This document shows, piece after piece, positions 411 to 63,971 of a DNA stretch of 64,000 bases; position 1 is the stretch's first letter, and each line of letters opens with the position of its first letter. Below the pieces are notes generated by a model. The model was not told the DNA's origin. It was given only the letters and a program-made list of their open reading frames with translations, and searched no databases. The position numbers were made by a program, and so were the translations under genes. The stretch is from Magnetococcales bacterium (GTDB lineage: Bacteria > Pseudomonadota > Magnetococcia > Magnetococcales > JADGBX01). The stretch lies in NCBI GenBank assembly GCA_015231265.1, contig JADGBX010000003.1:2829-66828 (forward strand), read 5' to 3'.

Positions 411-424
411 GACACTCGGGGGTG

Positions 425-448
425 GGCTCATTGAGGACACGCCCTAAT
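425..448 (+). repeat. Solo terminal repeat of the GGGCGTGTCCTCAAT MITE family
   Basis: ggctcattgaggacacgccctaat is identical over 24 nt to 61701-61724 and matches the right end of the complete element at 11308-11326. It overlaps the stop codon of the minus-strand gene 444..1742. Confidence 0.7.
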
Positions 449-1742
449 TATACAACAGATACCGGCGACTCCCCTCGAACAGAGCATCCAGGGCATCATC
501 GTGATCCAAAGCGGCGGGTGTCTTGCGCATCCACACTGGTGAAGCCATCACCAGACGCACCAAATCGTGCTGCCTGGAGGTGTTGGTTTTGCCGAATACT
601 GCCTTGAGATGTGAACGGGCGGTGTTGTCGGTAATATCCAGAGCTGCGGCGGTTTCCTGGAGGGTGCGGCCCATAACCAACTGAGCGGTCAACTCAGCCT
701 CCCGACTGGTCAATCCAAACAGGCGCTGCACCAACTCCGGCGGCGTCTCCTGTGGCTGGGTTGGATCGGTGACGAACACCACCGCCAGAGGAATATCCAG
801 ATGATCCAAACCTGGCGGTAAACTGTTGTCGGAGAGGGGGGAGACCAGAATGGAGAGCTGTCCTTCGCCATGCTTCCGGCTGACAGCCAAGGTGCGGGAA
901 TCCACCGGTGATTTTGAACCCTCCCCTTTACCCACGGCCTTCTCCACAAGAGAGCGCAATGCGCGATTCCCTTGGGTACTTTGGAGGGTCAATCGTTCCG
1001 GTTGATCAAGAAATCCATCCCGCTCCTTCAAGAACGTTTGCGCCATGGCGTTGGAAAAGCGTATCTGGCATTGAGCATCCACAATGAACATGCCCAGGGG
1101 AATGTGGTCCAGTGCACTGGTGGCCATATGTTTATACAGCAGCGCTTCGCCCAACCGCTTTTGAATGGCAAAAGCGCGCTTGAGATGAGGCACCAACTCC
1201 CCCATCAGATCACACTCCTCTTGAGTGAACGCTTCCTTTTCCGGCGGACGAAACATCCCGAATCCGGTGAAGCTTTCATTTTTGGCATCCTTCAGCACCA
1301 CGAGCATGGAGTATTCGGCTCGGGAAAACTGCAACACATCCTTGTAAACCTGTGATTCATGCAACTCCTCGTCGGTCAGATAGAGCCGGCAAGAGATGGG
1401 TTTGCCGGGATACTGATTGCAGAGCTTGATACGCGGATCCTCCGCCATATGCTGCTCTTGCTTCTTCTGCAACGTATCGTTCCAGTGCATGTCACCATCA
1501 GAGAACAAAATTGAGACGTTGAACTGACCATTATTGTGGTCGAAATGGCCCATTTGTCCCGCATCCGCTTCCAACAGCGCGCAGGCACTTTTCAATGCTC
1601 GTTGCCAATGGGTGGGATCGATGGAGGCATCGTAGATGGCGTCGATCACATCCAGAATACGGCGGTTGATGGTTGTGTCTTTGTTGGTCATTATGTTTAA
1701 CTCACTATCATAAAAAATATCTATTGCATTACCCCTGAACAA
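444..1742 (-). CDS. LuxR/FixJ-family transcriptional regulator, with a large N-terminal sensory (PAS-like) region and a C-terminal HTH
   Basis: 432-aa ORF. C-terminus LTSREAELTAQLVMGRTLQETAAALDITDNTARSHLKAVFGKTNTSRQHDLV is a typical LuxR-type HTH (GerE). The N-terminal part was not assigned more precisely. Confidence 0.8.
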   Translation of the reverse strand: MFRGNAIDIFYDSELNIMTNKDTTINRRILDVIDAIYDASIDPTHWQRALKSACALLEADAGQMGHFDHNNGQFNVSILFSDGDMHWNDTLQKKQEQHMAEDPRIKLCNQYPGKPISCRLYLTDEELHESQVYKDVLQFSRAEYSMLVVLKDAKNESFTGFGMFRPPEKEAFTQEECDLMGELVPHLKRAFAIQKRLGEALLYKHMATSALDHIPLGMFIVDAQCQIRFSNAMAQTFLKERDGFLDQPERLTLQSTQGNRALRSLVEKAVGKGEGSKSPVDSRTLAVSRKHGEGQLSILVSPLSDNSLPPGLDHLDIPLAVVFVTDPTQPQETPPELVQRLFGLTSREAELTAQLVMGRTLQETAAALDITDNTARSHLKAVFGKTNTSRQHDLVRLVMASPVWMRKTPAALDHDDALDALFEGSRRYLLYN

Positions 1743-10720: not shown

Positions 10721-10933
10721 AGTGACACAAACACGACATCCATACATGGCGCACAACTCTACCAGATACCTCATGATTTCCGGTGACGATTCGGTAAATT
10801 CATCATGAATTCTACCTCACACATCTTTACCGATTCACTGGCATAAGGAAATTATCCTAGCAATTTCAATGCGTTGGGATGGTCGTATTCCGAAACAACC
10901 GCTCGGCGATTCGCAACCGTTAGAAATAGTAGA

Positions 10934-10959
10934 GATTTCTCGAAAACTGTGACGCTCAG
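10934..10959 (-). repeat. 26-nt dispersed repeat core (copy 2, inverted)
   Basis: gatttctcgaaaactgtgacgctcag is the reverse complement of 385-410 with one mismatch. Confidence 0.6.
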
Positions 10960-11137
10960 GATTCGCAGAGTTGTGTAGAGGCTCGATTCCAGCCTGATCC
11001 GCAGGATCGAGATTCGACATCTATCTGTTTCTTCTTCTCTTCGTAATTGCGATTCTTGTGTTACCGAGTATTTGATGCGAATACAACGAATTTCCATGGG
11101 GAACTGAAGCGATAGGGGAGTATTCTAATACTCCAAG

Positions 11138-11326
11138 CTAGGGCGTGTCTTCAATTAGCCCAAAACCGCGCTGGCGTACCGCCAGCCCTTCGGGTTTGGC
11201 CTGAAAACGCACCATGCTTCGTTGTTCGTCGCTCATTTGGCCGTGCCAAACCGCGCTCCTCACGCCTTGCCTGCTGCATTTTCAGGCACAAACGCGATTT
11301 CGTTCTAAATTGAAGACACGCCCTAG
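11138..11326. mobile_element. Complete 189-bp MITE-like element with 19-bp terminal inverted repeats
   Basis: The left end ctagggcgtgtcttcaatt (11138-11156) is the exact reverse complement of the right end aattgaagacacgccctag (11308-11326). Read as TA + GGGCGTGTC...GACACGCCC + TA, the element is flanked by TA. There is no transposase-sized ORF inside. Related ends occur at 425, 20925, 40771, 41142, 55868 and 61701. Confidence 0.75.
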
Positions 11327-11815
11327 TATTTCACTTCTTGAACTGTGACATGCTTGTGTGCCGGAGGATCAGAGGAAATAGTATTATTGTGTCGCACGGA
11401 ATAACCGTAATATCCTGTCCGACTCCATCAATTGCACCAAATATGTTTCATTGATGTGTGGCCAAATTATACAGAACTTCCATGCACTGTAATGTCATTT
11501 ACACTTGTATAAATGAAGTGAATAGTTCCGCAGGATTCACAATCATTCACACGGCATGACGGTGGCGTGTTGGCATATAATCCATCAGCCATTCAAGGCA
11601 CTTGCTTGACAATTCACTCTCCTCTCATGCAGGTTCGCTACTGAGTTGTGCAATCTGCACACACCATGTGACACACAAATGGATCCGGGTCGGCCATGAA
11701 GACACTCTGCCAAGTACCTACTCTATTGTTACACTTGTCCGTCCCCATCCCTGGAAGAGCACACCTTTGCACCACCGACACATGACGAAAAATACACGCG
11801 AGGTGTTCACGATTC

Positions 11816-39962: not shown

Positions 39963-40101
39963 GTGTGTATGCTCTACATATTAAACCGTTTACAATAATC
40001 AGTATTCGAGTCTGGACTGCAATGTCACAACATGATCAAATAGATCCATTCATGATGTGCTGTTTGATTGTGTGGGGTGTTTGGATTGGGGGGTAGAAAC
40101 A

Positions 40102-40773
40102 ATGCAGTGTGCAGTCTGTATTGAAAAAGGCAACAATCGGTGTGATGTCTCAGGATTTGATTGCTCAAAGGGACGATTGGACACATCGTCTTATCATGTT
40201 GCCGAGAACCAACCTTTTCACCGTTTCAGCGATAAAATCAAAACAGAATCCCCTGGAATCGTTCTTTCCAGGGTTGAAGAAATCATCGCGTTTTGCCGTA
40301 AGGCTGGGTACAAAAAGATCGGCATTGCCCTCTGCATAAGATTCGGTGAGCACGGCTATCAACTCTCCCGGATCCTGAAGAGGCACGCCTTCAAGGTTGA
40401 GTCCGTCTGCTGCAAAGTCGGTGGACTACAGAAACCGGATTATGGTGTCGATGTAGCCGAGGGGGATTCCGCGACCATTTGCGCCCCTGCCGGACAGGCG
40501 GAAATATTGAATAGGGCGGGAACCGATCTAAACATCCAGATGGGTCTCTGTGTGGGCCATGACATTCTATTCACAAAATATTCTGAAGCCCCTGTCACAG
40601 TCCTTGGTGTCAAGGATCGAGCCACAGATAATAATCCTCTAACTGTTCTCGTCGATCCGAAATGGAGAACACATTTTCAGATGTCGGCTCGAGCAGATCG
40701 CATCAGTAGAAACAGGGACGAATCCAAGGAGAATTATCTCCATATGATGATCAGTGAGCGTTCAGGTGGTTAG
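40102..40773 (+). CDS. Cys-rich metal-binding protein, DUF1847-like
   Basis: 223 aa from ATG 40102. MQCAVCIEKGNNRCD..FDC at the N-terminus and GLCVGHDILF later match my recollection of DUF1847. The stop TAG (40771-40773) coincides with the degenerate left end of a MITE-like element. Confidence 0.45.
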   Translation: MQCAVCIEKGNNRCDVSGFDCSKGRLDTSSYHVAENQPFHRFSDKIKTESPGIVLSRVEEIIAFCRKAGYKKIGIALCIRFGEHGYQLSRILKRHAFKVESVCCKVGGLQKPDYGVDVAEGDSATICAPAGQAEILNRAGTDLNIQMGLCVGHDILFTKYSEAPVTVLGVKDRATDNNPLTVLVDPKWRTHFQMSARADRISRNRDESKENYLHMMISERSGG

Positions 40774-41159
40774 AGCGTGTTGACATTCAGCCCCTATCCG
40801 CGCTGGCTTGGCGCCAGCCCTTCGGGTTCGGACTGAAATAGCGTCATGCTGCGTTGTTCGTCGCTCATTGCAAGGTGAGGCGTGATCCGGTTCCTGGTTG
40901 TCGGGCAGTGCGCTGACGCTCAGCTATCACACAGCCAGGAGCACCACCGTCAGCCCGCTGATCAGTATCACTCTTCTCCAAATGCGCCGTTCTTCTCCAA
41001 GCACGACCTTCGTTATTCACGGATGGACACCCCAAATAGCATCCAAGCGATCACTTCTGTATGGAAGTGCTCCCTGCATATACGCCATTTCCTGGTTTTC
41101 TGGTGGAGCCGACGAGTATCTATAAGCACTCCATTCACCTCATTGAGGACACGCCCTAA
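40771..41159. mobile_element. Long (about 390 bp) degenerate member of the MITE family
   Basis: The left end tagagcgtgttgacattcagccc resembles ctagggcgtgtcttcaattagccc. The next roughly 90 nt (ccgcgctgg..gccagcccttcggg...gttgttcgtcgctcat) align with 11165-11250. The right end is cattgaggacacgccctaa at 41141-41159. Confidence 0.6.
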
Positions 41160-55867: not shown

Positions 55868-55911
55868 GGGCGTGTCCTCAATGCGCCCGAAACCGCGCTG
55901 GAGTGCCGCCA
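55868..55911 (-). repeat. Partial MITE-family end (left-end type) plus about 30 nt of internal homology
   Basis: gggcgtgtcctcaat then gcgcccgaaaccgcgctggagtgccgccag, compared with 11141-11185 of the complete element. No matching right end nearby. Confidence 0.6.
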
Positions 55912-61640: not shown

Positions 61641-61722
61641 CCGATTGTGGCACTGCACAACGCCTTGCCCGCTGTATTTTCAGTCACAAACGCTGATTCA
61701 GGCTCATTGAGGACACGCCCTA
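61641..61722 (+). repeat. Right half of a MITE-family element filling the whole convergent intergenic space
   Basis: 61660-61722 (acgccttgcccgctgtattttcagtcacaaacgctgattcaggctcattgaggacacgccctaa) aligns over most positions with 11264-11326 of the complete element. Confidence 0.7.
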
Positions 61723-63168
61723 ATCATCTGATCGTTCCTTAAGAATCACTCCACTGGGAAGACGACTTGCCATGCCCAAAGCCATCATGCGTTCCAGAAT
61801 GTATCGATACTCGTGCTGCCATTGATGATCGGTGGAGAAGACGTGTGTATGCCAGATGACGGCAGCTTCACCCCGACAGTGCACCACCTCGTCCAACAGA
61901 CGATCGATCACCGCCTCTCGGGCGGATTGTTCGGTCAAATTTCCATAGTGGAACAGGTGCGTATCCATGAGAATGGTCGGCACCACCCAGAGAGGATGCG
62001 CCCGCCCAGCCGCATGGTCATAAGGTCGGAACGGTGAGACCACACCCGCCCTGAATCCGGGACGATCGTTGAATCCCAGTGTGGTATCTACCTCGATTCC
62101 GGCGGCATGATGGGCTCGCCAAGTCTCGGCTAAAGAGAATCGCAACCAGTGTTGACGACAGGTCGTGACGGTGTGTCTGCAATCCAGCACCCTTTCCACA
62201 GCCTGAAGCTCACGGCGCATGCGCTCGGCATCCCGCCAGACATCGAACGCAAAGTGGACACCCACCTCCCACCCCTCAACGGCACGTCGTTGCAGGATCC
62301 CCGGCAACACGGGATGGGTGGACGGATCGTATGGAGGATCGAAAAGATAATGGCGCAACCTGGCCGCCGCACTCCCGGAAGGTCTTACACCGCTGAATAG
62401 ATTATAGGCCGAACGAAAACCGTATTGCTTCTCCATCTCGGCCATCTCGTCAATGAAGAGATAGTCCGCCCGACCGAAAATCATCCTCATCGCATCTCGG
62501 AGCCCTGTTGCCGCATCCCCGAAACGCGCCTGAAACAGACTACGGACGACATTAGCAGTACGGAACACCCCCTCTTTGAGTCTGGTCACTCCCTTTTTAG
62601 CGATCAGATCAACGTCGTGGGTGAGGTGAAGGGCTGGCTGTGCATCGACGGGAGAGGGGGGTGTGGTCAGTTTCCGGGTAATCGTAGCTGCCACTCCCCG
62701 AGCCAACAGCGTTGCATAGGGTCGATCGAAGCGGTCCGTATTGCCACCCGTTCGCAAGGCATAGGAGTGCAGCGGACCCAACCGGCACTCCTGTTCGTAC
62801 TCCTCCAAACACGACACATAGGCAAAAACGTTGTAAAACAGGTCGAAGGAGATCTCTTCTGATCCGGCATCCGGATCAATGGTGTCGGTATAGATGAGTA
62901 TGGCGTCGAGATCTTCGGAGCCGCACGCCATTTCGACCTGCTGCATCTTTCCAGGCCGAAACTCCGGTCGTCGGGGTATGAGAATCACCTCATCGCCAGG
63001 ATCCTCCGGAACGACCCCGTACCAGAGTGCAGGCCCACTGCCTGAGAGTTCCCCAGGAGCGACAAGCGAAAAACGAACGGCCAGCCCAGTCAATGGAGCA
63101 AGCACATCCAACGTGTAGAGCAACCAGTCATTATCCGCCTCGGGATCAGCAACGACCGGCAGTTGCAT
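61720..63168 (-). CDS. Polysaccharide deacetylase-fold protein, ArnD-like (putative deformylase/deacetylase)
   Basis: HLTHDVDL, EVGVHFAFD, CRQHWLRF, GFRAGVVSPFRPY and VVPTILMD line up by eye with the ArnD blocks (RIDVDT, EVGLHAWDH, AAGWR, PFRP, IPVTLPT). The start is chosen at ATG 63168-63166, which overlaps the upstream stop (TGATG). The track ORF extends to 63225. Confidence 0.55.
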   Translation of the reverse strand: MQLPVVADPEADNDWLLYTLDVLAPLTGLAVRFSLVAPGELSGSGPALWYGVVPEDPGDEVILIPRRPEFRPGKMQQVEMACGSEDLDAILIYTDTIDPDAGSEEISFDLFYNVFAYVSCLEEYEQECRLGPLHSYALRTGGNTDRFDRPYATLLARGVAATITRKLTTPPSPVDAQPALHLTHDVDLIAKKGVTRLKEGVFRTANVVRSLFQARFGDAATGLRDAMRMIFGRADYLFIDEMAEMEKQYGFRSAYNLFSGVRPSGSAAARLRHYLFDPPYDPSTHPVLPGILQRRAVEGWEVGVHFAFDVWRDAERMRRELQAVERVLDCRHTVTTCRQHWLRFSLAETWRAHHAAGIEVDTTLGFNDRPGFRAGVVSPFRPYDHAAGRAHPLWVVPTILMDTHLFHYGNLTEQSAREAVIDRLLDEVVHCRGEAAVIWHTHVFSTDHQWQHEYRYILERMMALGMASRLPSGVILKERSDD

Positions 63169-63971
63169 CACGGTTTCGATTCCTCGATAACGGGGATTGC
63201 AATCCGTTTGCGCCACAGCCTCCACATGAATCCCAAATGACGTTGGATGGTGCGCAATGTCCTGAGCTTGGACTGCCCATGCATCCGTTCGTGGATGACC
63301 GAGGGAGTCTGTTTAACCGATAATCCGGCCAACAACGCCTTGACCAGGATCTCTGCATTGGCAAGAAAGTCATTCGCTTCCGGTACAAGCGCCTTGACGA
63401 CATCCCCACGGTAGATGCGAAACCCACAGGTGAATGTGACCACATCACACGCCTTCTCCTGCAAGAGATAGCGGTAGAGCACCACCACCCCCCTGCTGAA
63501 GATGAACCGGTGCGATGGGTAGTTCCACGACCCCTCGTTCATGAAAGCCGAGGCGGTGACGAGATGGGCGTCGGGAGTCATCGCCTTGAGCAGTTCCGGG
63601 ATGGATCGAATATCGTAGTTGGTATCAGCGTCGATGGTCGCAACCAAATCTCCCTCGGCAGCCAGCAGACCCCGTCGCAGTGCACCACCATAGCCGAGAT
63701 TGTGCTCATTCCGAATCAGGCGCACGGAGGTGCTATTCCCGAAATGGCTGGAGAGCATCTCCCAGGTGCCATCGCTGGATCCATCGTCAACAAACACGTA
63801 CCCAACGCGATAACGCTGCCCGTCAATCAGTTCATGAAGCTGGTTGATGCGGAAGAAGAGCGTTGGTAACGCCGCCTCTTCGTTGTAACAAGGGATAACC
63901 ACCGTCAGGTGGTGAAGAGGCTCGGAGTAACGGGTTATCTGATGGCGTTTCTGCCGCTGTTTCATCGCCAT
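63168..63971 (-). CDS. GT2 polyprenyl-phosphate glycosyltransferase (ArnC/DPM1-like)
   Basis: 267 aa. VVIPCYNEEAALP, VFVDDGSSDGT and TIDADTNYD (DxD) are GT-A family 2 motifs. Confidence 0.8.
   Translation of the reverse strand: MAMKQRQKRHQITRYSEPLHHLTVVIPCYNEEAALPTLFFRINQLHELIDGQRYRVGYVFVDDGSSDGTWEMLSSHFGNSTSVRLIRNEHNLGYGGALRRGLLAAEGDLVATIDADTNYDIRSIPELLKAMTPDAHLVTASAFMNEGSWNYPSHRFIFSRGVVVLYRYLLQEKACDVVTFTCGFRIYRGDVVKALVPEANDFLANAEILVKALLAGLSVKQTPSVIHERMHGQSKLRTLRTIQRHLGFMWRLWRKRIAIPVIEESKP

Follow-up and report, generated by a model that had tools for sequence, protein, structure and literature searches.

Host stop codons coincide with the termini of a MITE of probable IS427-group origin in a Magnetococcales genome

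The closest described relatives of the repeat analysed here are insertion sequences of the IS427 group of the IS5 family, for example IS1248/ISPpa2 of Paracoccus and IS1301 of Neisseria meningitidis, which we take to be a member of this group. Elements of the IS427 group are 832–865 bp long, contain two overlapping ORFs with frameshifting and are nearly all flanked by 2-bp repeats (PMC3281130). IS1301 targets AYTAG and duplicates the TA (PMC2193550). The other comparable systems are bacterial MITEs with TA duplications, namely RUP of Streptococcus pneumoniae (IS630-Spn1), Nezha, and Correia/NEMIS of Neisseria. The element described here resembles the IS427-group sequences in that it shares its 20-nt terminus with IS5-family elements of ≈ 850 bp, appears to duplicate the same two base-pairs, TA, and has a target, (A/T)-Y-TA-R, that matches the AYTAG of IS1301. 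Unlike them, it is at most 182 bp long and non-coding, and would have to be moved in trans. Like RUP, Nezha and Correia, it is small, intergenic and present in many copies, with inverted repeats at its ends, TA on either side and transcripts that would fold into long hairpins (PMC2229807); unlike theirs, its parent appears to be an IS5/IS427 element and not an IS630 element.

The window, that is, the whole stretch of DNA that was analysed, comprises 64,000 nt (C333:2829-66828) of a metagenome bin of 3.82 Mb (459 contigs, 80% complete, 56% G+C). The 18-mer GGGCGTGTCCTCAATGAG had seven matches in the window at up to three mismatches, versus 0.1 expected. In the 3.8-Mb assembly we found 185 termini with this 18-mer, spread over more than 100 contigs, and 154 of them were flanked by TA. 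Forty elements had both ends. The full form of the MITE is 182 bp long (28 of the 40 exactly so, 30 at 182–184 bp) and a short form is 97 bp long (six elements); many of the remaining termini were solo ends of ≈ 21 nt or half copies. The terminal inverted repeats are 18–20 nt long and read GGGCGTGTCCTCAATKAG in subfamily 1 and GGGCGTGTTGACATTCAG in subfamily 2, which was detected by a more sensitive search and includes the third of the window sites described below. We classify the family as a MITE on its inverted ends on a short unit, its dispersed copies with TA flanks and the lack of a transposase gene of its own. The 182 bp are non-coding, form one long hairpin and are too short for a transposase gene. 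Diverged copies were present in three other genomes of the same order.

The following features of the window lie away from stop codons or lack the TA flanks:

11139..11325, plus strand: full-length copy of ≈ 183 bp in a C-TA...TA-G context; intergenic and not on a stop codon
20908..20957, minus strand: two tandem terminal motifs plus a short left-end fragment; not TA-flanked, 50–100 nt upstream of the start of a sensor kinase gene (20855)
55868..55911, plus strand: truncated end of ≈ 44 nt; not TA-flanked

The full copy at 11139..11325 is predicted to fold into one long hairpin with energies of − 87 and − 108 kcal/mol for the two strands (z-scores of − 8.5 and − 11.8). A terminator scan of 10900-11600, which spans this copy, detected no hairpin followed by a T-run, and a search of Rfam with the element matched no family. 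At about ten loci (e.g. C415:41432, C420, C422:12150 and C112:319) we also observed mini-forms, TA-GGGCGTGTCCTCAATGAGCCC-TA, that is, a 21-nt solo end with TA on both sides. These may be deletion derivatives generated via the GCCC microhomology of two ends, or abortive or excision products.

An earlier note on this DNA had claimed that three genes in the window stop on the TA at an element end plus the first G of the element. This claim was borne out at 444-446, 61720-61722 and 40771-40773. The genes and the elements concerned are as follows:

444..1742, minus strand: gene for a LuxR-type regulator of 432 aa, with a GerE domain at residues 344-397 and the C-terminus ...RRYLLYN followed by TAG
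423..446, minus strand: site 1 element, a solo end of ≈ 21–24 nt that reads TA-GGGCGTGTCCTCAATGAGCCC on the minus strand; TA plus first G form the TAG of the LuxR-type gene
61720..63225, minus strand: ArnD-like gene of 501 aa, with the C-terminus ...KERSDD followed by TAG
61659..61722, minus strand: site 2 element, a half copy of ≈ 62 nt; TA plus G form the TAG of the ArnD-like gene
40057..40773, plus strand: DUF1847-family gene of 238 aa; domain complete (profile positions 17-157 of 157)
40771..40869, plus strand: site 3 element, a subfamily-2 half copy of 95–97 nt that begins TA-GAGCGTGTTGACATTCAG...; TA plus G form the TAG of the DUF1847 gene
41139..41158, minus strand: solo end of subfamily 1 followed by TA-A; a separate feature, with no demonstrable pairing to the end at 40773

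At site 1, where the TAG is the complement of 444-446, the mRNA reads AAT TAG GGCGTGTCCTCAATGAG. The family match is confined to ≈ 423-446, and the DNA to its left consists of other repeats. At site 2 the TAG is the complement of 61720-61722 and the gene reads GAT GAT TAG GGCGTGTCCTCAATGAG, with the same 17 nt as at site 1; the half copy occupies most of the 79-nt spacer (61641-61719) that separates two convergent genes. Pfam profiles gave no match to the 501-aa ArnD-like protein. At site 3, GGT TAG at 40771-40773 is followed by AGCGTGTTGACATTCAG, and the DUF1847 domain ends 55 residues ahead of the stop. This third terminus had been taken for a degenerate version of the other two, but it belongs to the second subfamily (GGGCGTGTTGACATTCAG), which has several other copies in the genome. 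The elements are truncated at all three sites (a solo end and two half copies). We considered 40773-41156 as a single element of 384 bp and rejected it, as family sequence makes up no more than its first 97 nt and its last 18 nt.

The corner of the window around site 1 is a pile-up of repeats. A different palindromic, self-complementary repeat of ≈ 145 bp at 205-352 adjoins the solo end and has copies on contigs C418, C180, C321 and C258 at 69–92% identity. The segments 112-215 and 351-382 are duplicated ≈ 300 bp upstream of the window (C333:2498-2622) with 94–100% identity. ORF fragments at 2064-2429, also near site 1, resemble the integrase core of an IS3- or IS481-type transposase (...RFHKTLKHEE...) and represent a mobile-element remnant.

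We derived the insertion target from the flanks of the 154 TA-flanked termini. The base preceding the TA (position − 3) was C or T in 141 of them (92%), and position − 4 was A or T in 116 (75%). In complete copies, the base following the far TA was nearly always A or G. This flank logo defines the target as (A/T)-Y-TA-R, a sequence in which either strand offers a stop triplet, TAA or TAG. As the first base of every terminus is G, each junction reads Y-TA-G. The target had been given previously as TA; this is part of it, but the target is fuller, so that a stop triplet is built in. The flanks, the ends of orthologous genes and the literature suggest that the TA is duplicated upon insertion; no empty allele of the same species was among the genomes compared. 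Among the 13 termini with a purine before the TA, five lay on stop codons, which fits the finding that 76% of TAA and TAG stops are preceded by a purine. Poor targets of this kind are thus occupied chiefly at positions where an insertion does no damage.

To estimate how often termini and stop codons coincide in the genome as a whole, we used genes called by our own ORF and codon-usage scheme rather than by a standard tool (3,078 genes, 87% of the genome; stops TGA 1653, TAA 685 and TAG 500). Sixteen of the 154 TA-flanked termini were exactly on a predicted stop, as were 19 of 168 in an extended set. In the null model, all TA sites of non-coding DNA and of stop codons counted as equally harmless and were weighted by the flank logo of the non-stop termini. 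The model gave a chance of 0.037–0.045 per element side of falling on a stop and hence an expectation of 5.7–7.6 termini versus the 16 observed (19 in the extended set; binomial p ≈ 2 × 10− 3 to 2 × 10− 5). The excess was weaker when counted per element: by a rough hand estimate, ≈ 114 insertion events at ≈ 0.09 per site would yield ≈ 10 coincidences, compared with 16. A control that is independent of gene calling was based on the reading frames at the junctions. Open frames of at least 200 codons ended at the junction TAG in 15 cases versus 2 and 2 in the other frames, and a single gene, on contig C377, reads into an element, for 17 nt. In other genomes with the same terminus, 7 of 56 termini ended open frames of at least 200 codons in frame 0, versus 1 and 1.

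We then related the stop codons to the DNA that follows them. At 0, 1–3, 4–10, 11–20 and 21–40 nt past a gene end we counted 16, 0, 1, 9 and 10 termini, and the null model predicted 6.6, 0.1, 1.6, 3.0 and 5.0. The ratio of observed to expected was 2.4 at the stop versus 2.1 for the 1–40 nt after genes. Given a distance of at most 40 nt, the probability of a distance of zero was 0.40 by expectation and 0.44 by observation. Thus, the null model itself yields a spike at zero, because the stop codon is a guaranteed TAR in a region where such sites are scarce. Coding sequence contains 62% of the genomic YTAR sites but only 9 of the 154 termini. The tally of distances to stop codons that the earlier note had called for therefore has two sides: termini are enriched ≈ 2.4- to 3-fold at stops, but the enrichment is no greater than in the adjacent 1–40 nt. 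Since the excess at stops is about that in the next 40 nt, it points to target sequence and selection and not to aiming at stops. The coincidence with stop codons is real, yet it is an ordinary side effect of the insertion site, and the stop codon is not specially targeted.

The ends of the encoded proteins were compared with those of orthologues lacking the element. The closest orthologue of the LuxR-type gene, from genome G019, lacks the element and has 74% identity; its protein ends ...FEGSRRYLLYN and its last codons are AAT TAA. In the window gene the residues are identical and the codons are AAT TAG. The G019 DNA beyond this gene showed no synteny, and the far flank of site 1 was not recovered. 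In the gene for a PiT phosphate transporter (contig C221) the stop is made by a full-length copy. The protein ends ...FTLKGIFS, like an orthologue of 76% identity that has AGT TAA. The HscA protein (contig C403) ends at the same aligned residue as five of seven orthologues. For the three full-length copies that lie on stops, the reconstructed empty sites read TAA, TAG and TAG; in two of the three window cases, truncation of the element prevents a direct reconstruction of the original stop. These three protein ends and the three empty sites support the proposal that an element landing in the TA of such a stop codon (TAA or TAG) rebuilds a TAG and leaves the protein unchanged. The C-termini in orthologues without the element, which had been named as the deciding comparison, are the same for LuxR and PiT and, in five of seven cases, at the same position for HscA. 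The GerE and DUF1847 domains are complete in the window proteins. The tail of the ArnD-like protein is of normal length in comparison with 13 homologues of 38–48% identity, a set that does not resolve its exact end. A comparison with 40 genomes of the same order gave no close relatives of the ArnD-like and DUF1847 genes, and the LuxR-type gene alone of the three window genes had a close orthologue; an exact-protein look-up of the LuxR-type and DUF1847 proteins returned no record. Among the genes compared, we found no case of truncation by the element.

The exact 20-nt terminus TAGGGCGTGTCCTCAATKAG was found in 54 stretches of representative genomes of diverse bacteria, many of them at contig ends. 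The carriers include Psychrobacter, Asaia, Xanthobacteraceae, Coxiellaceae and Nitrospiraceae. Complete elements with such ends are 848–890 bp long, and the ends are identical to those of the MITE at 20 of 20 nt. We examined six of these ≈ 850-bp elements: four were in a C-TA...TA-G context, one had C after the far TA and one had a variant right end. The N- and C-terminal parts of their transposase are in two different, overlapping frames. The joined transposase scored 306.8 bits against NF033580 (IS5 family; cut-off 110) and contains a DUF4096 and a DDE_Tnp_1 domain. Judging by its size, the arrangement of its frames and the length of its repeats, the parent probably belongs to the IS427 group. 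Within the bin itself, IS5-family fragments that represent the two halves of such an element are resident at two contig ends, with the left end C-TA-GGGCGTGTTGACAT on C407 and the right end ATGTCAACACGCCC-TA-A on C42, and both match the subfamily-2 terminus. An autonomous element with the subfamily-1 terminus was not found in the bin, an assembly of 459 contigs at 80% completeness of a kind in which repeats are usually unassembled.

Two features of the related elements deserve mention. In four of the parent elements (L077, L078, L036 and L070), the transposase stop codon TGA lies within the right terminal repeat (...AATTGAGGACACGCCC or ...AAATGAGGACACGCCC). Bins of Coxiellaceae and Gammaproteobacteria contain elements of ≈ 165 bp (L039 5430-5593 and L065 580-745) that have the same 20-nt termini and a different, A+T-rich interior. 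The shared termini and differing interiors indicate that unrelated MITE families arose on the same transposase-binding ends in distant bacteria.

These results are best explained by a non-autonomous MITE derived from an IS5/IS427 element, the coincidence with stops arising from the (A/T)-Y-TA-R target, the terminal G and selection. We assign this explanation a probability of roughly 0.85. A transposase, presumably supplied in trans, would recognise the 18- to 20-nt terminal inverted repeats and insert the element at (A/T)-Y-TA-R, with duplication of the TA. The G at the terminus would then create the junction Y-TA-G at each end. Where the TAR of the target coincides with the stop codon of a gene (TAA or TAG), a TAG would be rebuilt at the same position and the protein would be unchanged. 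Other insertions in coding sequence would damage the gene and be lost by selection, so that the survivors would collect between genes and on stop codons; purifying selection is thus the probable cause of the distribution. Directly observed are the logo of the target, the frames at the junctions, C-termini that are unchanged and ends that are identical to those of IS5-family elements.

An IS630/Tc1-mariner-type parentage, which is what TA duplications are usually taken to mean, would have a MITE with GGGCGTGTCCTCAAT termini meet stop codons through the TA or CTAG targeting of that family. The TA flanks, with Y before and R after, are indeed as reported for IS630-type elements, but they do not discriminate, as 2-bp TA duplications are common to the IS427 group. 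The resident IS630-type DDE_3 fragment at C55:68-244 might be counted in favor of this parentage; however, it is the only such fragment, and the terminal repeat was not found in it with as many as five mismatches allowed. Given also the 20-nt identity of the termini with the ends of IS5-family (NF033580) elements, and the related terminus on the resident IS5-family fragments, we regard an IS630-type origin as very unlikely. A note adjacent to the earlier one had labelled the MITE family IS630/mariner, a label that is unsupported, as the ends match IS5-family elements. Still less credible is that the coincidences are truncations or chance, the element having landed in the 3' part of a gene or beside spurious ORFs and created a premature TAG. 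Close to its end the element does carry stop codons in each of the three frames, and a gene that reads into it will therefore soon terminate; the gene on C377 does run 17 nt into an element. Against this stand the frame asymmetry of 15, 2 and 2, the C-termini of LuxR and PiT (identical to those of element-free orthologues) and of HscA (at the same position), and the intact DUF1847 and GerE domains. Moreover, with a Y-TA-R target an in-frame TAR is already a stop by definition. As to the IS630-type fragment itself, contig C55 (G000, 1-352) encodes the C-terminal part of a DDE_3 transposase and carries a stretch of ≈ 62 bp at both 1-62 and 290-352, which is probably an assembly wrap-around at the contig end.

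The elements might instead be aimed at, or kept at, gene 3' ends for a function, their transcribed hairpin terminating transcription, stabilising the mRNA or offering a site for RNase III and the stop position being favored by that function, as proposed for REP, ERIC and Correia elements. Several observations are in line with such a role. In the zone 0–40 nt after genes there were 36 termini versus 16.3 expected, and termini faced gene 3' versus 5' ends in a ratio of 81:70, compared with ≈ 60:79 in the null model. The predicted hairpin is very stable, as judged by its z-scores, and at 61641-61719 a half copy makes up the bulk of the spacer of two convergent genes. However, the skew would be explained equally well by selection that is weaker past the ends of genes than in promoters, nearly half of the termini face gene starts, and the stop codon itself is no more enriched than the 40 nt that follow. 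The orientation of the two element ends was unbiased (A-end versus B-end 4:5 at stops, 3:8 at 1–40 nt and 57:57 overall). Many of the stop-associated copies are cut to ≈ 20–60 nt and cannot form the hairpin, and the terminator scan and Rfam were negative as described above. These data lend little support to a role of the element in the 3' UTR. We consider it improbable that functional retention explains the coincidences, and similarly doubtful that the transposase prefers gene 3' ends or that the host has taken over the hairpins or solo ends. Were this the case, a solo end might be kept because its G completes the stop, and the hairpin might shape 3'-end formation or mRNA stability in dozens of genes.

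The derivation from an IS427-group element, with target and selection as the source of the coincidence, opens no new mechanism. In a literature search of limited coverage, we found no paper that states the stop-codon effect for IS427-type MITEs. For TA-flanked MITEs in general, IS630/mariner should not be the default assignment; the family here probably derives from the IS427 group within the IS5 family. In annotation, a gene end abutting one of these repeats is to be read as genuine and not as a truncation. Such insertions made ≈ 4% of the TAG stops in this genome (19 of ≈ 500), and at least two TAA stops were turned into TAG. The family thereby exemplifies a general rule: if the target contains a stop triplet and the element end supplies the third base, insertion into a stop codon is without cost to the protein.
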